Of a DNA stretch of 64,000 nucleotides, positions 50,608-59,854 are shown piece after piece. Source of the stretch: Candidatus Methanoperedenaceae archaeon. Lineage in GTDB: Archaea > Halobacteriota > Methanosarcinia > Methanosarcinales > Methanoperedenaceae. The stretch spans positions 1 through 64,000 of the forward strand of contig CAVWCX010000019.1 of NCBI GenBank assembly GCA_963753595.1, read 5' to 3'. The notes under the pieces are model-generated. The model was given only the letters and a program-made list of their open reading frames with translations, did not search any database and had not been told where the DNA came from. The number at the start of each line of letters is the position of its first letter. Position 1 is the stretch's first letter. The position numbers and the translations under genes are program-made.

Positions 50608-51495
50608 TTACGAAATAAGTGCCTTTATGATCTTTCCATAAATATCCCTGTCAACAGTATCCTCATAGCCGTCATATATACTTGGATTATCATTTATTTC
50701 GATGACCTTATATCCATCCTTTGTTTCTTTTACATCAAGACCATAAAGACCGTTGCCTACGCATTTTGACAGCGTTATGGATATTTCTTTCAATTCCGGT
50801 GAAATAGAATCCCTTGATAATGCAATAGTATCTCCCCATACGTTTTTTCCGTCGATCTTTGATTTTACCTTCCAGCCACCTTTTGGCATGCAATATTTGC
50901 ATAAATAAAGGACTTCATTCCTGAGTATCCCAACGCGCCAGTCAAAGTCTGATTGGATATATTCCTGAAGTACAAGGACTTTAGCTTTCATCAGCAAATG
51001 TTTTGATACTTCAACAAATTCTGTTTCATCCCTGGCTTTTTCGACATGGGACGAAAAACGAGTATATGGTGTTTTAATTATCACAGGCAATCCAAGTGTC
51101 TTGAATATTTTATCAAGAGTTTCCCTTGAATAATCACCATGAAATAAAATAGACTTTGGCGAAGGAATATTATTTTTCTGGAAAAGGTCATGCAGGATCG
51201 CCTTGTTGGAGCATGTCCTGATAGAGTGAGGGTCATCGATGACTTTCAATCCTGATTGTTCTGCAAGTCTTGAAACAATGTATGCAGAGCTGCTCGGATC
51301 AGTTGTGGCTCTTATGAAAAGGGCATCATAATCCGGGATTTTCGAAATATCGTCTTTATAGATAAATTCAAACGCATGCCCCATCGATTCTGCGGTGGAC
51401 TTGAATTTATTCAGGGCGCTGCGTTCAGATTTAAGATTAAAGTTATAGGCTTCGACAAAACAGGCTATTTTCATTTTTTTCTCATGTTTTAGCAC
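50608..51495 (-). CDS. RimK-like ATP-grasp ligase
   Basis: DALFIRATT, VIDDPHSI, FSSHVEK, QEYI..DFDWRVG, GLYGLDVK, VIEINDNP. Confidence 0.9.
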   Translation of the reverse strand: MLKHEKKMKIACFVEAYNFNLKSERSALNKFKSTAESMGHAFEFIYKDDISKIPDYDALFIRATTDPSSSAYIVSRLAEQSGLKVIDDPHSIRTCSNKAILHDLFQKNNIPSPKSILFHGDYSRETLDKIFKTLGLPVIIKTPYTRFSSHVEKARDETEFVEVSKHLLMKAKVLVLQEYIQSDFDWRVGILRNEVLYLCKYCMPKGGWKVKSKIDGKNVWGDTIALSRDSISPELKEISITLSKCVGNGLYGLDVKETKDGYKVIEINDNPSIYDGYEDTVDRDIYGKIIKALIS

Positions 51496-51501
51496 CTGTA
51501 T

Positions 51502-52164
51502 TTATCGGCTCTTGATAGTTCCTGCACCTATTATCTCGTGCAGTTTATCATGAACGATATCCCACTTCACTTCTTTTTTTGTCGCAGGTTCGCAATGGTT
51601 CAGAACGACTCCGCCATCGTCTATCTGAACAACCAATTTACAAATGGGGATATTGAATACTTCAAAGAATTTTTTAGCAAATTCTGAGGTTTCTTCGTTG
51701 GTTGATTCCCCGAACATTTGTATTATTTCCACCACTTCTCCTGTAAGAGGATGTAACGAGACAGGAAATCTTGCACCCATACTCATTCTCTTTATCATTC
51801 CAGGAAGTTTTGAGCTGGAATCCACCACTTTCATTGAGTTATTGGTAAAAGGATTTACGGCAAACATTACGACCGGAGCATCAATTTCGCTTCGCCCAGA
51901 TGTTACAAGCCTGTAATCGCTGGTGCGAAGGCCATGTCTTTTTGCTTTTTCGATCAAAAGCGGGTTCCTGTATGCATCCATTATTTCGGTACAATTCGGT
52001 GTGACTTCTACTCCAAAGGTTTCAGCATGTGCAGATACATAATAACCCATCCTCAAATAACGGTAGTCATGGTTGATATTAAGTACGCTGTCGTGTACTG
52101 GTTGCCCTAAAAAATTAAACGGATTAGAGTCGCTATCATCTTCGTCTTCACTGACTATAATCAT
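51502..52164 (-). CDS. RimK-like ATP-grasp N-terminal (RLAN) domain protein
   Basis: VLNINHDYRYLRMGYYVSAHAE..G..V.P and C-terminal F..F.IPI pattern; directly upstream of the ATP-grasp gene. Confidence 0.78.
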   Translation of the reverse strand: MIIVSEDEDDSDSNPFNFLGQPVHDSVLNINHDYRYLRMGYYVSAHAETFGVEVTPNCTEIMDAYRNPLLIEKAKRHGLRTSDYRLVTSGRSEIDAPVVMFAVNPFTNNSMKVVDSSSKLPGMIKRMSMGARFPVSLHPLTGEVVEIIQMFGESTNEETSEFAKKFFEVFNIPICKLVVQIDDGGVVLNHCEPATKKEVKWDIVHDKLHEIIGAGTIKSR

Positions 52165-52256
52165 TTTTGATATCAGTCCGTTACCATATCATTATAATCT
52201 GAGTATAAATAAGTAACGGCTTGCAACTCTGGTTTCCAGTGAAATCACCTAAATAA

Positions 52257-52316
52257 AACCAACACGAACAAACTCCGATAGCGGGAGTTCGTATCAGTTC
52301 GTTCGGGTTAGTTGTT
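52257..52316. repeat. REP-like imperfect palindrome, copy 1 (overlaps the ccmF stop)
   Basis: ACGAAC-rich left arm and GTTCGT-rich right arm; near-identical to the reverse complement of 62629-62659. Confidence 0.7.
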
Positions 52317-54677
52317 CTTTGACTTTGTTCTCACTGCCATTATCAGGATTATTCCTATTGCAAAAAGTACAACGCCGATCCATGCAAAATTCACAGCAGG
52401 AATTATTTTCAAAGTGAGGGGAACAACTCCGCCGCCAAGACCCTGGAATATTACATATATGTCGGTCCCTGTAATGCTGCTGTCAACGAGCGGGAATGTC
52501 CCGCTTCCGCTCTGTGATTCAAGGTATTCAGCGACTCCGCCCCCTATTTTCTTGTTATCCTGGTAAACTTCAAGCTGGACGCTCTGGACATTATAATTGC
52601 CCGAAGCTGTCCCCTCTGTGATCTGTTCCGGGTTTGAGAAAACAATGAGGGCGCAGGGATTTACTGTTGTGCAGGGTGAACCTGTAGAATTACTTGAGAA
52701 ATCTTTCATGAGGAAACCTTCTACTGTAAGTTCCATTCCTTCCTGGAATTCAATTGGCGTATCTGCCTGTGCAGCAGCCCATAGGCTTCCTGTCCCGTCA
52801 TTTATCTGCAAATACTTATAATTAATAGAAGGCGGGGATACGACTTTTACCAATTTTCCGCTGATTTTTACATTATTATTGGCATATTCGTCGGGACTCC
52901 CGTATATTTTCGATATGCTTATTGTTCCTGCCGGAAGATCCGTGGTTTGCACCAGGCTTCGGGTTGAAAAATCAATTATTTTTATACCATAACCATTTCC
53001 GATATCCGCTAATTGTCCTTTTGACGCCAGCGGTATATTGGCATTTTCGATGGTCTGGGTAAAATTTGAGCTTATGATGGCGCCAAATAAAATAAATACT
53101 ACCCCAAAATGCACTACCGCTATGCCAATACCTTTGATTTTGGGTCTTATGCTTTCGATCCGAAGATATTCCCTGAGGCGCCGGATGGTTGACCATGCCG
53201 CATATATCATGGATGGGAAAATAGATATTACTGAAATATTACCAATTATCTTATAAAGAGCAGGCTCTCTTGCCCAGAAAGGGCTATAATGATCAAGCAC
53301 ATAAAAGTTCTCTGTTCTAAGGAACATGGTTATTATTGACAAACCAGTTACTATGAAAAGTATTTTTTTCTGCTCTTCTTTCTCCTTCTCATTATAGTTT
53401 AAGCAAAAGCCAAGTGCAAGCATCAATATTATTGTGAATGGATAGCTCCAGATATTGAAGAAATTCTTGGTATCAGAGGCGACTCCCACTTTGAGCCCCT
53501 GCGTGATCTGTATGAACGCGGGGAAGGAAATGCCCCAGAATGAGATAAATGCCAGAACCACGAACAACAACAGTGTAACATAGAAAATATTCGTCTTGTT
53601 CCAGAATCCGCGGTCTTCCTCCAATTTGTCCGGTTCCTCAAAATAACGCCGCAGACCCAGTATGATGGATACAAGCGTTGTGATCCCTATAAAAACCAAA
53701 AGCAAAGTACCTGTTGAACTGTCACCAAAAGCATGGACCGAATTAAAAATACCGCTCCTGACAACTATTGCGGCATAAAGTACAAGAATGAATGAAACAA
53801 CCGCAAGTATTGGCGCAGCTATTGAAAATGTCGCCTTGTTCTTCCTGTGAAGAGCCGCAGCATGCATAAAAGCCGTAAGCGTTAACCATGGGATAAAAGA
53901 TGCAGTCTCAACAGGATCCCATGCCCAGAATCCGCCCCAGCCCAGTACAAGGTATGCCCAGACGCCCCCTACAGCTATACCCATTCCCAGGAACAACCAG
54001 GTAAACCGCGCCCACTGCCTGCCAAGTTCTTCCCAGCCGTCTTCTTTTGTGAACAGGTAAACGATTGCTGCTGCAAATGGTATTGTCATAGTCGCATAGC
54101 CGATGAACATAAGAGGTGGATGGACCGTCATCCAGAAATTTACAAGGAGGGCATTAAGGCCATTGCCAACTTCAGGAACAAAATCAGGTGGCAGAGTCCC
54201 TTTTGCGATCATGTCAACTACTTCAGGCCGCTCGATTATAAGCTTAAAAGGTGATTGCACAAGGGTTATTATAATAAGATACATTCCCGAAAGAAGAGTA
54301 ATTATCTGGGTCCTTCGTGCAAGGGCAGTTTTATGGTTTGTTGTCACAGCGAGCCATGCAGCAGACAGGTACACTACCCAGACCCATAGGAGGTATGTGC
54401 CTTGCTGGCCAGCCCATGTACCGGATATTTTATAAATAAGAGGAAGATCGGCACTTGAGTATTGCCACACATAATCGTAAGCGAAGTCACTGTATACAAA
54501 ATAATATGTAAGGAGAATGTATGAAAACGTGAGAAGCCCTGCCCCCGCTATTATTGCGGGCGTTATAAGCTTATTTAACAATTCGATATTTTTTATTTCC
54601 CGGGATATTAATCCCACAAGTGCAATAACGCTAACTGCAAGACTTGCATAAAGTAATGTGTCACCTAATGGTATCAT
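52308..54677 (-). CDS. ccmF: Cytochrome c maturation heme lyase CcmF/NrfE with an inserted OB-fold (NrfJ-like) domain
   Basis: WAGQQG, GNGLNALL..WM.VHPP, WGGFWAWDPVETAS, RSGIFNSVHAF, VHFG; extra domain YLQINDGTGSLWAAA...VEGFLMKDFSS. Confidence 0.9.
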   Translation of the reverse strand: MIPLGDTLLYASLAVSVIALVGLISREIKNIELLNKLITPAIIAGAGLLTFSYILLTYYFVYSDFAYDYVWQYSSADLPLIYKISGTWAGQQGTYLLWVWVVYLSAAWLAVTTNHKTALARRTQIITLLSGMYLIIITLVQSPFKLIIERPEVVDMIAKGTLPPDFVPEVGNGLNALLVNFWMTVHPPLMFIGYATMTIPFAAAIVYLFTKEDGWEELGRQWARFTWLFLGMGIAVGGVWAYLVLGWGGFWAWDPVETASFIPWLTLTAFMHAAALHRKNKATFSIAAPILAVVSFILVLYAAIVVRSGIFNSVHAFGDSSTGTLLLVFIGITTLVSIILGLRRYFEEPDKLEEDRGFWNKTNIFYVTLLLFVVLAFISFWGISFPAFIQITQGLKVGVASDTKNFFNIWSYPFTIILMLALGFCLNYNEKEKEEQKKILFIVTGLSIITMFLRTENFYVLDHYSPFWAREPALYKIIGNISVISIFPSMIYAAWSTIRRLREYLRIESIRPKIKGIGIAVVHFGVVFILFGAIISSNFTQTIENANIPLASKGQLADIGNGYGIKIIDFSTRSLVQTTDLPAGTISISKIYGSPDEYANNNVKISGKLVKVVSPPSINYKYLQINDGTGSLWAAAQADTPIEFQEGMELTVEGFLMKDFSSNSTGSPCTTVNPCALIVFSNPEQITEGTASGNYNVQSVQLEVYQDNKKIGGGVAEYLESQSGSGTFPLVDSSITGTDIYVIFQGLGGGVVPLTLKIIPAVNFAWIGVVLFAIGIILIMAVRTKSKNN

Positions 54678-54680
54678 GTT

Positions 54681-55160
54681 TTATCTCCTAACGTCATCCC
54701 TTATTTTCGTAACAATCGGAAGTAAATAATTTGCATCAACCGATCCCGGTACCCTCTGCAGTATATTACCCTTCGGGTCCATGAAAATAAGATAGGGAGG
54801 ATAGCTTACCCCATATTGCCGGGCGACCTCCCTGTCGATATCAAGGTCCATTGATACAAGAACATAGTCTTCCTCAAGGATCTTCTTTACCTGGGGATTT
54901 CCCAGTGTATTTATCTGGAATCCGGCGCAATACTGGCACCATATAGCCCAGAAATACACCATGACAGGTTTATTTTCCTGCTGTGCGATCTGGAAACCTT
55001 CTTCAAGCCCGGAAGCTGCGCGGTGAAATTTTATGCCGCCAAGATAACTATTCTTATCATCGCTGAAAGTAAAATTTTTAAGCGCAGTAGTATAAGTTAA
55101 ATATGCAAATAACAAAAGTAATACCAATACAATTATCGACACGAGTTTTTTGGTTCTCAT
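54681..55160 (-). CDS. Membrane-anchored thioredoxin-fold protein
   Basis: N-terminal TM, WAIWCQYC, YGVSYPP. Confidence 0.88.
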   Translation of the reverse strand: MRTKKLVSIIVLVLLLLFAYLTYTTALKNFTFSDDKNSYLGGIKFHRAASGLEEGFQIAQQENKPVMVYFWAIWCQYCAGFQINTLGNPQVKKILEEDYVLVSMDLDIDREVARQYGVSYPPYLIFMDPKGNILQRVPGSVDANYLLPIVTKIRDDVRR

Positions 55161-55279
55161 ATGTTCTTTCCTATTGTTTTGAATCGAATATAAGTATATA
55201 TGTTTTTAGTGGGTGTAAACTCTGATTTTATCCCGTTTTTTTTCTTGTGAGTCCCGAAAAAATTTCCCGCTGCCCTTGG

Positions 55280-56689
55280 TTATATTATTGGTAAAGTCAA
55301 AATCTTAAATCCAATTATCAAATAAACGATAGCAGTAAATCCTACAGCTATCATACTTTGCTGCAATTCGTTTTCATCGTGTGAATCCCTTTTGCTGATG
55401 AGATACCCGGCCCACAATGTAAATATAAAACCGCAAACCAGGAAGACTAACTGCAACCTGTTGATCGTATCAAAATCTGGTGAAAATTCCCATATTTTCC
55501 CGAAAAAACTTCCAATACTGGCCGCTATAAAAAACAATCCTTTCAAAAGGCGGAATGTGTTTTCAGCAAGATATACCGACAAGCTCAGGGGGATGAACGC
55601 ATAGGATAATTCAATAAATTTTTGCTTTGCGTTTTTTCCAAAAGTCGCCCTTGAGGAAAGATACATTAATCCTGCCGCGCCAAGTGTTAAAAGGAAAAAT
55701 ATAATGATAGCCCACATATTTCTCCAGTACATGTCAAGGAAAGCGATCGAATCAACAGGAAGAGTCGATTTGACAAAACTAATTATCACATTCCTGAATT
55801 GCAGTCGCTCCATACCCAGTACAAATAAAAATATAATGATTATCCCATGTACAAGAAATGCTTCATCAAGATGAGGTTTCTTTGAATGGATGAGATCCGC
55901 TCCCGGAAGCCTGGGGCTTATACGGATATTGCCCTTTGAACATGATTTCACACATTCCATGCACATGATGCACTGGTTATTCCTCTCCATTGTCGGGGGA
56001 ACCTCACCTACAGGGCATCCTTTTCCTGCCTTGTTTCCGATTATGCATTCTTTGATGTCATGATCATGGCATATTTTTTTGGACTTGCATCGAAGTTCAA
56101 TTGCCGAAAGCATTGAGAATAAACCAAGCACAAGCCCGATCGGGCAGATGTAACGGCAGAAACTTCGTTTTTCATACACCGCTCCCATCACTATGGCAAG
56201 TCCCGTAAAGAAAAGAAGAAGATATGCGGTATTGGGTGGATTTCTTGTAAACTGGAACAGGTGGCGCTCGGCTGCAAAAATAATAAGGAAAAGTATTACT
56301 GCTATCCAGAGATTCCGGTACTTTTCAGGATATTTCCTGTTAAGGCTGAAAACAGACTGCGTCCATTCTCCGATCGCCCCTATTGGACATGCAAAGCACC
56401 ACAGCCTTCCCACAATTAATATGGTAAAAGCAAGCAATGGATGCCACAGATCCCATATCATTGTAGTTGCAAATGGTATTCCCCCATGGAATCTCAGGTC
56501 GGGTTCACTCGAAAGACCAAAATAAATTATAATCAAAAGAAAAATAAACAGGAAAAAGTTGACCAATGGTTTAAAGAACCTGTTCTTCACAAGATCTTTG
56601 AAAAAATAAACATCAAGCAGGTCATATTTTTCTGTGTTCCCGTGATTGTCTGGATTTTCGTTTTTTCCAGTCTCTTTTTTATTTACCAT
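55280..56689 (-). CDS. Polytopic 4Fe-4S membrane protein (NapH/MauN-like)
   Basis: GRLWCFACPIG, RSFCRYICPIG, GCP, CIMCMECVKSC. Confidence 0.88.
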   Translation of the reverse strand: MVNKKETGKNENPDNHGNTEKYDLLDVYFFKDLVKNRFFKPLVNFFLFIFLLIIIYFGLSSEPDLRFHGGIPFATTMIWDLWHPLLAFTILIVGRLWCFACPIGAIGEWTQSVFSLNRKYPEKYRNLWIAVILFLIIFAAERHLFQFTRNPPNTAYLLLFFTGLAIVMGAVYEKRSFCRYICPIGLVLGLFSMLSAIELRCKSKKICHDHDIKECIIGNKAGKGCPVGEVPPTMERNNQCIMCMECVKSCSKGNIRISPRLPGADLIHSKKPHLDEAFLVHGIIIIFLFVLGMERLQFRNVIISFVKSTLPVDSIAFLDMYWRNMWAIIIFFLLTLGAAGLMYLSSRATFGKNAKQKFIELSYAFIPLSLSVYLAENTFRLLKGLFFIAASIGSFFGKIWEFSPDFDTINRLQLVFLVCGFIFTLWAGYLISKRDSHDENELQQSMIAVGFTAIVYLIIGFKILTLPII

Positions 56690-56691
56690 AA

Positions 56692-57456
56692 TTAACCAAA
56701 GAATTGTTCATAAAGGCTTGAAATTTGAGTGTCAATATTGACCGAATAAGGAAGGAAAATGATCTTTAGATATTTGTCGATGCCAAAAAGCATCATCAAT
56801 CCCACAAGTATCAGGACCAGGCCTGAAAGCTTTTTAAAGAAATGGCTTCTTTTTGAGAACCATTTGACACGGCCTGAAACACTTTTTCCCGAATATGCTA
56901 TTATAAGCATCGGGATGCTGACACCCAGGGAATAAGCAAGAAGAAGAATTACGCCATACGAAATATTTCCTGAGCCTGCTGAACTTTCAGCGACCACAGT
57001 GAACACCGAACCAAGTATTGGGCCCACGCATGGTATCCACAGGATCCCAAGAGACATTCCCAGGAATAGCCCGCCCAGAAGTCCTTCAGGATTGGCTTTT
57101 GAGGTTATTTTCCCAATAAAAGTCACATGCTCACGTAAATAATTCAAGATCGAACTTGAAAAATTCGTATAAATTTCATTTATATCATCATCAAACAGCA
57201 CCGCACCCATTCCGATAATTACAAATATCGAGAACCAGCGCAGGTAATCTGTAAAAAAGCTGAATGATGCCACTGTAAAAACAAGAAGCCCCATCAGTGT
57301 GAAGCTCAATGTCATTCCAGTGACTATTGCAAGCGGACGAAGCCTGCTCCCCACAGAACCCGATAATACCGCAGGAAGGATTGGAAGAACGCACGGCGTT
57401 GCAACTGTTGCCATTCCGGCAAGGAATACCAGTAATATGGGGGGAGCTACAGACAT
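56692..57456 (-). CDS. ccdA: CcdA/DsbD-type transmembrane disulfide reductase
   Basis: TPCVLPILP and WIPCVGPILG. Confidence 0.92.
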   Translation of the reverse strand: MSVAPPILLVFLAGMATVATPCVLPILPAVLSGSVGSRLRPLAIVTGMTLSFTLMGLLVFTVASFSFFTDYLRWFSIFVIIGMGAVLFDDDINEIYTNFSSSILNYLREHVTFIGKITSKANPEGLLGGLFLGMSLGILWIPCVGPILGSVFTVVAESSAGSGNISYGVILLLAYSLGVSIPMLIIAYSGKSVSGRVKWFSKRSHFFKKLSGLVLILVGLMMLFGIDKYLKIIFLPYSVNIDTQISSLYEQFFG

Positions 57457-57457
57457 T

Positions 57458-58726
57458 TTATGTTTTAGCTACCGCATCGATATTATCATTTTCGGCCTGT
57501 ACCGTAAAAATGTCTCCTGTCATTTTGATCACGAGAATATTACCTTTTGTTTCGGGATTATATTTGGCAAGACCTGCAGGAACAGACTTTGTATCCGTTA
57601 TGCGAAATGCCCTGACAAGTTCTACATTACCTCCGGCAGAAGTCAAACTCTCATAATTCATATCTGAAAAACCAGTCTTTTCCGAGATTACAAGTGCATA
57701 CGCAGCATTCTGGTAATCCACTGCATCAAGCAGGGGTTTATAATCCGAATATGAAGTAGCCATACTATTCGGATCATTTATCAATTTTGCAACATTATCC
57801 ACATTCTGGCTATGTCCGTATATTAACGGTCTTGTCATTACAATATTTTTCATTTCCGGCTGGATCTTTGCTTTAATAGAAGCATCATTTGTACTGTCAT
57901 AACCCAGGTCACGAAGTTCTATCCATGAATTCGGGCTGAAATCAGCGCTGTACAAACCTATTTCATTCTTACCATAGAAACCATCCGGCTCTACCTGCTT
58001 TAATATCTGCGCTTGCATTTGGGTTCCAGCTATCATCTTTCTATTTACAAAATATGCGCGGTTCACACCGGCAGGCGTGAGTTTCAAGCCATCGGCAAGG
58101 GATTTGAAATTGCCTGGCAGTGACAGCGTTGACAGGTCAATTGAGGGAGCAGGCGTGACAGCAGATAATCCAGTAACAGGAATTCCTGTTGGGAAGTAAC
58201 TCTGGGTTTTTGTTGCTATCCCGACACAGACATCACAGAATGAAGCATGGTCGTCATAAACCCCATCATTAGAAATGAAGCAATCTCTTACAGACATATG
58301 AGGTTTTCCCCCGGATGTTATACTTCCATGGTCTCCGCAACCGCAGTAACATGGTATCTGCTCCAGCACCTCCGGGTGCTCAGTCGCATATTTATATGCT
58401 TTTAATGTCATCGCGTTTGTAACGGCAAAATCCGGAAGTTTGCCTGCAGGTCTTGGTGTAAGTATCGGTAAATAATTATCCACAACAGGTGGCGTGTTTG
58501 TCCCTGAACCCCCTCTGTTTCCATATTCTTTATCGATCAATGCCCTTACTTCCTTAAGGGTCATTTTCTGTTTTGTATCTGTTTTCTGAGAATCACCAGG
58601 CAGCAGGAAGAATACTCCGATGAGAATAATTGCTGCGACTGCAATTATTACAATATTATTATTTCCTTTCTTTTTCGGTATCTTTTTGCTTTTCTTTGCA
58701 TCATCTAATTTTTTTTCAGGCTTCAT
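57458..58726 (-). CDS. Membrane-anchored PCYCGC-motif protein with an extra C-terminal domain of about 220 aa
   Basis: AY.YA.EHPEVLEQIPCYCGCGDHG...HMSVRDCF...YDDHASFCDVC. Confidence 0.85.
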   Translation of the reverse strand: MKPEKKLDDAKKSKKIPKKKGNNNIVIIAVAAIILIGVFFLLPGDSQKTDTKQKMTLKEVRALIDKEYGNRGGSGTNTPPVVDNYLPILTPRPAGKLPDFAVTNAMTLKAYKYATEHPEVLEQIPCYCGCGDHGSITSGGKPHMSVRDCFISNDGVYDDHASFCDVCVGIATKTQSYFPTGIPVTGLSAVTPAPSIDLSTLSLPGNFKSLADGLKLTPAGVNRAYFVNRKMIAGTQMQAQILKQVEPDGFYGKNEIGLYSADFSPNSWIELRDLGYDSTNDASIKAKIQPEMKNIVMTRPLIYGHSQNVDNVAKLINDPNSMATSYSDYKPLLDAVDYQNAAYALVISEKTGFSDMNYESLTSAGGNVELVRAFRITDTKSVPAGLAKYNPETKGNILVIKMTGDIFTVQAENDNIDAVAKT

Positions 58727-58739
58727 TTTAATGCCTCCT

Positions 58740-59207
58740 TTATTTTATAATTTTATTTATTTCATCAAGGAACGTTTGATTTGTCCTGTATCCAAGTAAT
58801 CTTTTTATTTCAGTCCCATTTGAATCGAGGAATATTTCAGTTGGAGTAGCCCGTATTTTAAAATTCCTGGTTTCAGTTTTTTGATTGTCCACATCTATAG
58901 AGACCAGTATGAAATTCTTATTCAATTTTTCGATCACAGTCTCGTTAGTAAAGGTCTCAGATTCGAATAGTTTGCATGCTCCGCAATACTCAGACCTTGC
59001 GTATACAAATAACGGCTTTCCCTGTGTTTTTGCTAAAAGAAGGGCTGGTCCAACTTCTGTGTTGAAGGTCAATCCCTGTAACGTTATCTGTTTTGGTCCA
59101 GGAATCTTTTCATTTGAAATATTACCTGCCTTATCACCCGATTTGGCGCTCAAACATCCTGAAAGCAGGACAAAGAGAATAATTAATACGAATATACATT
59201 TCTTCAA
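58740..59207 (-). CDS. Thioredoxin-fold lipoprotein
   Basis: Lipobox LSGC, EYCGAC, ATPT. Confidence 0.88.
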   Translation of the reverse strand: MKKCIFVLIILFVLLSGCLSAKSGDKAGNISNEKIPGPKQITLQGLTFNTEVGPALLLAKTQGKPLFVYARSEYCGACKLFESETFTNETVIEKLNKNFILVSIDVDNQKTETRNFKIRATPTEIFLDSNGTEIKRLLGYRTNQTFLDEINKIIK

Positions 59208-59333
59208 GGTCTATCCGATTTTACAATGAGTGTAAAGTTATATAAGGATTGTGGTTCATAAGAATTGTAGTTCTCATTGTGAGCAGGCAGGGTTTTATTA
59301 TTATTGCAAGACAATACAGTAATGGTGATTTGA

Positions 59334-59543
59334 ATGCCTTTTGTAAAAATAATTGATACTGTGGGCTCATCGTCCGAAAGCTGGGAGCAGGCTGCAAAAA
59401 ATGCAATTGAGGATGCCTCAAAACTACCGATATTCAAACAAAAAGGTAAGATCACAAAGGCTACTATCAAGGATTTTGATGTAAAGATCGAGGATAATAA
59501 GATAGCTGCTTACCTTTGCAGGGTAGAGATGTTCCTTGAGTGA
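59334..59543 (+). CDS. Dodecin family protein
   Basis: KIID.VGSS.ESWEQAA.NAI..A. Confidence 0.85.
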   Translation: MPFVKIIDTVGSSSESWEQAAKNAIEDASKLPIFKQKGKITKATIKDFDVKIEDNKIAAYLCRVEMFLE

Positions 59544-59545
59544 TC

Positions 59546-59854
59546 ATGCCAGAAATAAGTGATGACGATCTGGAAGCAATGCTTGAGCGTCAGCCTACAT
59601 TGCGTGAAGCAAAAGTAGATGACCATGCCCTCATGGTAAAGGTGCTTGAACATCCTGTCAGGCGAAAGATGATAAAAACCATAGGAGTATTCGGGAAAAC
59701 TAAGGCCGGATTGAAAAAAGAAGTCGGCGTGGATGATGCCATGTTAAATTTCCAGATCGATTTCTTTATTAAAGGAAATTATCTCACAGTTGATGGAGAT
59801 AATTACAGGTTGAATGACAGGGGACTTGTTTTGTTATCGAATATCCCGAAATGA
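59546..59854 (+). CDS. Small winged-helix (ArsR-like) protein
   Basis: LEHPVRRKMI...L.F...Y.L..RG. Confidence 0.65.
   Translation: MPEISDDDLEAMLERQPTLREAKVDDHALMVKVLEHPVRRKMIKTIGVFGKTKAGLKKEVGVDDAMLNFQIDFFIKGNYLTVDGDNYRLNDRGLVLLSNIPK

Follow-up and report, generated by a model that had tools for sequence, protein, structure and literature searches.

A cluster of six genes on the minus strand at positions 52308-59207 of the window, a 64,000-nucleotide stretch of contig CAVWCX010000019.1 from a Candidatus Methanoperedenaceae archaeon, is best explained, with a probability of roughly 0.55, as a thiol and electron supply for extracytoplasmic cofactor assembly that is attached to a heme lyase pair. 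The cluster encodes a thioredoxin-fold protein (Trx1), a protein of the uncharacterised PCYCGC family (PF13798), a CcdA homologue, a NapH-like polyferredoxin, a second thioredoxin-fold protein (Trx2) and a long CcmF, and on this reading the PCYCGC protein would be a redox-active accessory and not a heme client. Its organization suggests two joined modules, A (Trx1, PCYCGC, CcdA and NapH-like) and B (Trx2 and CcmF). Module B represents an ordinary and known archaeal heme-attachment pair, beside which a conserved four-gene unit has been added; what is new is the placement of the PCYCGC family in a context of cofactor assembly. In what follows G000 denotes the genome of the window, C its contigs and L the fetched loci, and the names CcmF-E, CcmF-M and CcmF-L (the long form found in the cluster) were coined in this analysis.

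Trx1 (58740-59207, minus strand, as are all six genes; 155 aa) has a TTG start, a lipobox-like LLSGC and CGAC at residue 75, and is followed by the long-form PCYCGC protein (57458-58726, 422 aa), CcdA (56692-57456, 254 aa), the NapH-like protein (55280-56689, 469 aa), Trx2 (54681-55160, 159 aa, ATG start, CQYC at residue 75) and CcmF-L (52308-54677, 789 aa). From Trx1 to CcmF the gaps calculated from the open reading frame (ORF) coordinates are 13, 1, 2, 119 and 3 bp. An earlier note on this DNA had described six co-directional genes with gaps of 1-13 bp except one of about 120 bp, and had assigned the same families; the layout is as described, the labels agree with Pfam and NCBIfam, and its remark that the operon lacks CXXCH holds for all six proteins, as it does for the four flanking ORFs checked. 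We favour the two-module view because the 119-bp gap between the NapH-like gene and Trx2 (55161-55279, minus strand) is the sole sizeable one in the cluster and is retained (37-141 bp) in the 19 orthologous loci with both genes, and because it holds on the minus strand a T6 run (55257-55262) 3' of the NapH-like stop, the TATA-like ATATATAC (55194-55201) and GGAAAG 5' of the Trx2 ATG. The gap may mark the boundary between two transcription units. The two-module view is also supported by the occurrence of module B alone in sister families, by the location of the modules on separate contigs in genome G050 and by a B-only duplicate on C34, all described below.

A search with the PCYCGC protein across 201 genomes of the order gave matches in 128, including all 52 of the window's family. 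Among 20 long-form loci from other genomes, picked by their match to the long PCYCGC protein, the order PCYCGC-(CcdA)-NapH-like is retained in every one, CcdA being missing between its neighbours in four (L052, L054, L060 and L061). Trx1 adjoins PCYCGC in 18 loci, the exceptions being L051 (no match) and L062 (cut by a contig end); Trx2 comes next in 19 and CcmF-L in 18. L064 ends after Trx2, and L062 consists of PCYCGC-CcdA-NapH-like only, with CcmF-L on another contig of its genome. All six genes stand in complete order in 13 of the 20 loci, so the arrangement is conserved in other genomes, as the reading of the earlier note required. In the most distant loci protein identity falls to 33-45%, and since the core order is retained in 20/20 loci at such identities while the flanking genes differ, it reflects more than chance. 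A second sample of 23 archaeal long-form loci from named records, several of them cut by contig ends, contains Trx1 in 21, CcdA in 21, the NapH-like gene in 22, Trx2 in 18 and CcmF-L in 15. The cluster core recurs across Methanoperedenaceae, some ANME-2 (anaerobic methanotrophic archaea) and one Methanosarcinaceae genus. In an ANME-2 metagenome-assembled genome (MAG), ccmF...ccmE lie directly upstream of Trx1 (L122), and in a Hydrothermarchaeales MAG (L101) the core is rearranged to Trx-CcmF-L-CcdA-COX2-like-cupredoxin-NapH-like-PCYCGC, followed by heme synthesis genes.

CcmF-L looks functional as a heme lyase. It matches PF01578 at 101 bits (cut-off 29.9) and CcmF_C (PF16327) at 31.9 bits (cut-off 28.7) and falls below the NCBIfam cut-offs (228.5 against 569 bits for TIGR00353, 241 against 927 bits for TIGR03145), as a divergent member of the family. 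The WWD motif is present as WGGFWAWDPVE at residue 247, and H186, H272, H315 and H523 align with His 173, 261, 303 and 491 of Escherichia coli CcmF, which we take to be the two periplasmic and two transmembrane histidines of that protein; the motif and the four histidines are invariant in 20 orthologues. An insert at residues ∼588-660, within the extracytoplasmic C-terminal domain, is likely an OB (oligonucleotide/oligosaccharide-binding) fold, given its alignment to CcmE (hhalign probability 80%, E 1.4e-5) and weak Pfam matches in the orthologues to tRNA_anti-codon (11/20) and CcmE (6/20). The heme-binding H/CxxxY tail of CcmE has no counterpart here, no conserved Cys/His...Tyr being found after the insert in the 20 orthologues.

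The lineage and distribution of CcmF-L point to an ancestral role for module B. In a first tree 22 CcmF-L rows form one clade (Shimodaira-Hasegawa-like approximate likelihood ratio test, SH-aLRT, 95-100), separate from CcmF-E (99) and CcmF-M. When the C-terminal 250 residues were searched against the phylum, three further families of Halobacteriota proved to have long CcmFs (728-794 aa by ORF calls), with a Trx gene directly before the long CcmF in 6/6 loci; its neighbours in two annotated loci are CcmB-CcmA and CcdA-CcmC, and in 4/5 of the genomes it is the only long CcmF. Five of the six rows join the CcmF-L clade in a second tree (SH-aLRT 93), the sixth, a long branch, falling elsewhere, and CcmF-E groups with a Chloroflexota System I CcmF (SH-aLRT 89); both trees are quick ones with long branches, and their deep order is tentative. 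The expectation that this is not the only ccmF of the genome is borne out by five CcmF-like and two CcmC-like genes, but the cluster's copy groups with the housekeeping-type archaeal CcmF and not apart from it. Within the order, the C-terminal search matched 60/201 genomes (46/52 in family f1, 6/20 in f2, 0/27 in f3, 1/94 in f4, 1/1 in f5 and 5/6 in f6). In L206 and L208, one f5 and one f6 locus from sister families, a Trx homologue directly precedes the long CcmF and the other four genes are lacking, and in G050 modules A and B lie on different contigs. Because other Halobacteriota have the Trx-long CcmF pair within full ccm loci and L206 and L208 have it alone, module B is taken as ancestral: Trx2 and CcmF-L would be the ancestral archaeal CcmG-like/CcmF pair and not an NrfE-like specialist. 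Module A is a lineage-specific addition. It follows that additional copies of CcmF in ANME are not necessarily specialised lyases, CcmF-L being of the ancestral archaeal type.

In the G000 assembly (2.89 Mb, 37 contigs, 92% complete) ccmA/B/C-like ORFs, named by position and a CcmC Pfam match only, lie on C3 and the single ccmE on C34, so heme delivery is encoded elsewhere than in the cluster, which is not the self-contained operon that had been suggested. PF01578 has seven matches, two of CcmC size and five CcmF-like frames (790, 784, 670, 652 and 336 aa). CcmF-E (666 aa, C34:56971-58971) adjoins ccmE, CcmF-M (650 aa) adjoins cytochromes with 16 and 18 hemes in a context that fits the 'CcmF2' of Chadwick et al., a split CcmF lies on C23, and a second CcmF-L copy occupies C34:77584-79935. 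The latter is part of a duplicate of module B without module A (C34:77101-79935), in which the Trx2 paralogue (C34:77101-77580) is 80% identical to that of the window, near a radical SAM gene and two multiheme cytochromes (16 and 18 CXXCH). The wider locus (L012, C34:67841-79935) comprises CcmF-M and these cytochromes and, divergent from them, a radical SAM/SPASM gene and the second Trx2-long CcmF pair. In the tree the second CcmF-L is placed together with the CcmF that belongs to the six-gene cluster in another species of Methanoperedens (L060, SH-aLRT 99), and the C34 pair may be a remnant of a second cluster. There are 37 ORFs with at least two CXXCH, with a maximum of 36 in one ORF, and two PF13798 genes. 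The organism has very many hemes to mature in the presence of oxidants (nitrate or metal oxides, for example), and reductant may matter more to it.

Both thioredoxin-fold proteins have an N-terminal hydrophobic segment, a CXXC and Pfam matches above the cut-offs (Thioredoxin_2 at 48.7 and Thioredoxin_7 at 48.2 bits for Trx1; Thioredoxin_2 at 57.5 bits, with Thioredoxin_7 also above its cut-off, for Trx2), as expected of extracytoplasmic members of the fold. They are 29% identical to each other over 96 aa, and in NCBIfam both align best with the C-terminal Trx domain of DsbD, Trx1 with that of DsbD/TsoB models. Likeness to E. coli CcmG is limited to the active-site stretch. Trx2 is putatively membrane-anchored with a CcmG-like role. 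Orthology with CcmG itself was considered and set aside; a 3.6-kb CcdA-homologue locus of a Methanosarcina genome (G186) contains no Trx1- or Trx2-like gene at E ≤ 1e-3. CcdA matches DsbD_2 at 42 bits (cut-off 24.9) and DsbD_TM at 39.4 bits (cut-off 27.1), and its C22 (in TPC) and C143 (in PCVGP) are invariant in 18 sequences, as in the transmembrane domain of CcdA/DsbD. G000 carries two further CcdA paralogues.

The NapH-like protein resembles NapH in the Fer4_5 region only (38.3 bits over two stretches in Pfam) and scores far below the NapH/MauN cut-offs (27.4 against 213 bits for TIGR02163, 28.2 against 234 bits for NF007013). It carries the motifs CFACP, CRYICP and CIMCMECVKSC, of which one is a CXXCP and one a CX3CP, and a hydropathy scan gives ∼9 hydrophobic segments, with extra C-terminal helices relative to the four-transmembrane (TM) NapH. 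No solved structure matched it at E up to 1. Its gene adjoins PCYCGC in 22/23 archaeal long-form loci and in 10/13 Chloroflexota loci. Two paralogues occur in other settings of G000. One (C4:68609-70261, 550 aa), the third NapH-like paralogue, has a Met/His-rich start (MDMGNMDMGN...H...H) that looks copper-binding, and another (479 aa) lies in L013 (C34:21011-30677), where a CopA-like ATPase with an HMA motif, a CcdA paralogue, a second CcmC-like gene and a TusA-like gene are found within 10 kb, copper, thiol-redox and heme-handling genes again being neighbours.

The PCYCGC protein consists of an N-terminal membrane anchor (∼25-43), the PF13798 Cys/His domain (∼96-180) and a C-terminal alpha/beta domain (∼204-411). 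The family match is clear (59.5 bits against a cut-off of 25) and confined to residues 96-178 of 422, and the protein scores 55.3 bits against the CYCXC model NF041379 (cut-off 90). The domain has the CYCGC motif, downstream His and Cys residues and a single CxxC; C126, C128, C130, H143, C149, H160, C164 and C167, which include all six Cys of the protein, are invariant in 21 sequences. In the predicted structure (predicted local distance difference test, pLDDT, 79) the domain is helical, with C164xxC167 at the start of helix 165-177. Profile searches for solved relatives of the domain returned only chance-level rows (E ≥ 0.5), and a protein-cluster search with residues 90-185, PF13798 clusters left out, gave no usable match. 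The model of the C-terminal domain resembles the lipoprotein TP0453 (3k8g_A; Z 10.6, rmsd (root-mean-square deviation) 4.3 over 186/251 residues, 11% identity; Foldseek E 3e-5; the next row has Z 6.3), a shared fold that shows no function. A 289-aa membrane-anchored protein of G000 (C2:53645-54514) matches only this C-terminal domain (26% identity over 232 aa) and lies in an uninformative context between tryptophan-synthesis-like and ribosomal-protein-like ORFs, named from their translations; similar stand-alone forms account for weak matches to the PCYCGC query across Methanosarcinales.

The CxxC of the PCYCGC domain looks redox-active, judging from relatives in which its first Cys, the position of C164, is replaced by an in-frame TGA. 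This occurs in two Chloroflexota family genes of the same genome, G202 (L100:3230-3790 and L199:5030-5560); conserved sequence goes on past the TGA in both, and G202 has a SelB match above the cut-off. The two are probable selenoproteins. A selenocysteine (Sec)/Cys pair usually marks a redox-active residue. The family appears in the table of a 2026 review as a UxxC selenoprotein family (PMC13188914) and in a lipoproteome survey as a motif-bearing lipoprotein with no function given (PMC13068155); in the parts of the literature accessible to us, PF13798 is in print only in these two guises and has no assigned function. The gene in L199 has rhodanese, sulfur-transport and DsrE-like neighbours, and that in L100 has TPR, radical SAM, DUF1573, NapH-like and second PCYCGC genes beside it.

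Neighbourhoods elsewhere repeatedly place PCYCGC domains next to genes for cytochrome c biogenesis, of System I in archaea and System II in Chloroflexota, and so give the family the functional context that the earlier note had anticipated from links with ccmF, ccdA, Trx and NapH-like genes. A small form of the domain is found in 31 Methanoperedens loci in the order ccmE - CcmF-E - CcmH-like - 578-aa - CcmH-like - 310-aa - cupredoxin - DsbD-like - PCYCGC. CcmH-like and DsbD-like genes are present in 25 of these, cupredoxin in 24 (the small PCYCGC gene following the cupredoxin gene in 24/31) and CcmF in 19, the remainder being cut by contig ends. The homologue search with the small form found only close Methanoperedens relatives among the 120 of 142 matches listed. 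Among the 25 Chloroflexota loci closest to the archaeal query (set 1), genes for TPR (16), CcdA (14), ResB (12), CcsA (11), HemA (8) and NapH-like proteins (3) are adjacent, and no seed gene is found in 5; the usual order, PCYCGC-TPR-CcdA-ResB-CcsA, corresponds to a System II operon that contains no thioredoxin gene. An unbiased family search of 151 Chloroflexota genomes found PF13798 in 12 genomes and 14 loci, of which 12 together with one TGA-bearing G202 locus make up the 13 loci of set 2. A recurrent cassette (L187-L193 and L195), named from Pfam, consists of PCYCGC - cupredoxin/COX2-like - NapH-like (Fer4_5) - COX2-like fused to cytochrome c, and CcmE/CcmF lie 3-5 kb away in two loci. The setting common to PCYCGC domains is extracytoplasmic, beside a membrane protein that can carry reductant across the membrane or to its outer face (CcdA-type or NapH-like) and beside proteins that hold a cofactor on a Cys pair (heme c or CuA-type cupredoxins).

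In G000 the ccmE-adjacent cluster with the small PCYCGC gene (C34:47882-59394, L011:3882-15394), whose order is retained in most of the 31 loci, encodes CcmE, the 666-aa CcmF, a surface-like protein of 578 aa, a CcmH-like protein that matches PF03918 at 32 bits, a protein of 310 aa, a cupredoxin carrying the motif HWYCDICCGG...MH, a DsbD-like protein and the small PCYCGC protein, after which come four small proteins of no known kind and an ICMT-like methyltransferase. Its relatives have a second, weaker CcmH-like match by tblastn between CcmF and the 578-aa gene. The sequence AMECCL...(W/Y)IDPM, which includes a Cys-Cys pair, occurs in both the 310-aa (L011:9448-10380) and the 578-aa (L011:10922-12658) protein and is covered by no Pfam or NCBIfam family.

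In the mechanism that we favour, CcmF-L would ligate heme, delivered by CcmABC and CcmE encoded elsewhere, to CXXCH sites, while Trx2 would hold the apocytochrome cysteines reduced. Module A would supply reductant to the extracytoplasmic side. We infer that electrons flow outward: CcdA would hand cytoplasmic thiol reductant to the Trx proteins, which are DsbD-gamma-like, and quinol or ferredoxin may drive a further route through the NapH-like protein. Anchored in the membrane, the PCYCGC domain, with C164xxC167 and six more invariant Cys/His, would act on the Cys pairs of apoproteins that receive Cys-linked cofactors, its targets here probably being the many multiheme cytochromes of Methanoperedens. 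The simplest single function of the domain would be to keep or make cofactor-holding Cys pairs reduced, in a role like that of ResA, CcmG, CcmH or TlpA.

Several observations weigh against this proposal. The five Halobacteriota genomes with the Trx-CcmF pair lack PF13798 altogether (0/5) and mature their cytochromes without it, as does the control genome, Methanosarcina acetivorans, which has no PF13798 match; because archaea with the same pair, and M. acetivorans, do without PCYCGC, module A is not required for the maturation reaction itself. In the unbiased Chloroflexota set PCYCGC stands mostly in the cupredoxin/NapH-like/COX2-cytochrome c cassette with copper genes, which points to copper. 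Sec can also serve as a metal ligand, so the TGA is no proof of thiol-disulfide chemistry. The second archaeal sample and Chloroflexota set 1 were chosen by likeness to the archaeal query, and all neighbourhood counts are drawn from related genomes and are not independent.

The proposed pathway has close relatives. In DsbD, CcdA-ResA, CcmG, TlpA-Sco and ScsABCD, a CcdA-type transporter feeds extracytoplasmic Trx-fold reductants of apocytochrome or CuA Cys pairs, often in copper contexts. The window shares with these a CcdA-type transporter and extracytoplasmic Trx-fold proteins; PCYCGC, however, is not a Trx fold (its model is helical), and a NapH-like Fe-S membrane protein is foreign to pathways of the DsbD, ResA or CcmG type. 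System I of M. acetivorans comprises CcmABCEF with an adjacent, dispensable ccmG-ccdA according to the accessible part of Gupta et al. (2022, PMC9084895). The two systems have in common the WWD motif and four histidines of CcmF, a Trx-fold CcmG-like partner, CcdA, and CcmE and CcmABC encoded elsewhere. They differ in that CcmF of the window is one long protein with a putative OB-fold insert whereas that of M. acetivorans is split, that a Trx gene directly precedes CcmF, and that PCYCGC and the NapH-like protein are added. The haloarchaea-like ccm loci L200 and L205 (high-GC Halobacteriota) likewise have the Trx-long CcmF pair, the C-terminal domain and CcdA nearby, but carry CcmA/B/C and are without PCYCGC, NapH-like or second Trx genes.

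Methane-oxidising Methanoperedens depends on dozens of multiheme cytochromes. For archaea, which mature c-type cytochromes without CcmH and CcmI, Gupta et al. could not exclude a non-orthologous replacement, as stated in the same accessible part (PMC9084895). The locus supplies two candidate accessory factors, the PCYCGC protein, with its CxxC (UxxC in some relatives), and the NapH-like membrane Fe-S protein, and offers a working hypothesis for PF13798 as an extracytoplasmic redox factor tied to the assembly of heme c and copper centres. A bolder extension, which we regard as tentative and less likely than not, is that PCYCGC and the 9-TM NapH-like protein form an unrecognised membrane-spanning reductase, driven by quinol or ferredoxin and with a Cys/Sec active site, that Chloroflexota and archaea use beside or instead of the CcdA/DsbD-Trx route for the assembly of heme c or CuA-type copper centres outside the cytoplasm; in ANME-2d it could be a non-orthologous replacement for the missing CcmH/CcmI step. 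In the accessible portions of the literature on Methanoperedens CcmF and thioredoxin, no description of this cluster was found.

The serious rival is copper. Module A might serve to handle copper or to withstand copper stress, in a way similar to Scs, TlpA-Sco or a cupric reductase. PCYCGC would then bind or deliver Cu(I) or shield thiols from copper, the NapH-like protein would reduce Cu(II), and adjacency to the CcmG-like/CcmF pair would reflect only a shared need for CcdA. The Chloroflexota family search speaks for it: besides the cassette itself, with the NapH-like gene next to PCYCGC, the surroundings include HMA (L189 and L192), multicopper oxidase (L189), P-type ATPase (L190) and YHS-ABC (L191) genes, as well as FTR1 and a two-component system. 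The cupredoxin gene before the small archaeal PCYCGC, the COX2-like and cupredoxin genes between CcdA and the NapH-like gene in L101, the Met/His-rich start of the NapH-like paralogue on C4 and the CcdA paralogue beside a CopA-like ATPase in G000 fit it too. Yet no cupredoxin, HMA or ATPase gene is present in the window cluster or in its 20 fetched orthologous loci, in 12 of the 25 set-1 Chloroflexota loci PCYCGC belongs to a ResB/CcsA operon that has no copper gene, and the NapH-like protein has no match to the CcoG family at E up to 0.01. On balance we consider a dedicated copper unit doubtful, though it deserves to be taken seriously.

It is unlikely that the NapH-like protein and PCYCGC act in respiration, as a quinol dehydrogenase that releases electrons to an acceptor outside the cytoplasm, instead of in biogenesis. 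The precedent comes from Methanoperedens itself, whose nitrate reductase cluster contains a 9-TM NapH homologue between two heme-copper oxidase (HCO) subunit II homologues, all of them expressed, according to the part of Arshad et al. (2015) accessible to us (PMC4683180); the accessible part of Chadwick et al. (PMC9012536) considers ANME NapH homologues as possible quinol oxidisers, and the Chloroflexota cassette, with its cupredoxin - NapH-like - COX2 layout, resembles the HCO II-NapH-HCO II set. The window protein shares with NapH/NapGH and that set the Fer4_5 region, CxxxCP-type motifs and two cytoplasmic Fe-S motifs, and its extra C-terminal helices are as in the Methanoperedens NapH homologue. 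In the window, however, the gene has no cupredoxin or cytochrome partner and no NapG or NapAB, and is embedded between CcdA and the Trx-CcmF pair with PCYCGC and Trx as neighbours, and a domain with a Cys/Sec CxxC is unusual as a respiratory carrier.

Least probable is the view of the earlier note that CcmF-L, like NrfE, is a lyase devoted to a non-canonical heme motif, with the PCYCGC domain as its client or chaperone: several CcmF paralogues, CX3CH, CX4CH or CXXCK motifs in some multiheme ORFs of G000, the restriction of long PCYCGC to the CcmF-L lineage among the archaea examined and the proposal, in the accessible part of Chadwick et al. (PMC9012536), of specialised CcmF paralogues for large ANME cytochromes speak for it, but in other Halobacteriota the complete ccm loci contain no long CcmF apart from this lineage, the Trx-CcmF pair occurs without PCYCGC in L206, L208 and L200-L205, and PCYCGC itself has no CXXCH-type motif and is found with System II, in copper cassettes without CcmF and with no lyase at all. 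Like NrfEFG of E. coli, the lyase for the CXXCK site of NrfA, the cluster has a CcmF-family paralogue beside another CcmF in the same genome; unlike it, it contains no CcmH/NrfF or TPR (NrfG) gene by Pfam and NCBIfam, and the tree places CcmF-L with housekeeping archaeal CcmF and not with NrfE. Candidates for NrfA in G000 are limited to weak, partial PF02335 matches, the best with 31.9 bits over profile positions 246-378. Neither the NrfE analogy nor the role of PCYCGC as a heme client is therefore retained.

Both flanks of the cluster are not retained in the more distant loci. Downstream, a RimK-like ATP-grasp gene and its RLAN-domain partner (50608-52164, minus strand) follow a candidate terminator-like element (52251-52290, minus strand) after the CcmF stop, with a 6-bp stem, AACTCC/GGAGTT, and then a T-rich tract. 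On the Trx1 side, the TATA-like TTATATAA (59238-59245, minus strand), 30 nt 5' of the Trx1 TTG, is a candidate archaeal promoter element. Beyond it, divergent from Trx1, are a dodecin gene (PF07311, 50 bits) and a gene for a 104-aa protein without a family match (59334-59854, plus strand), homologues of which adjoin the cluster in four close relatives (L046-L049).

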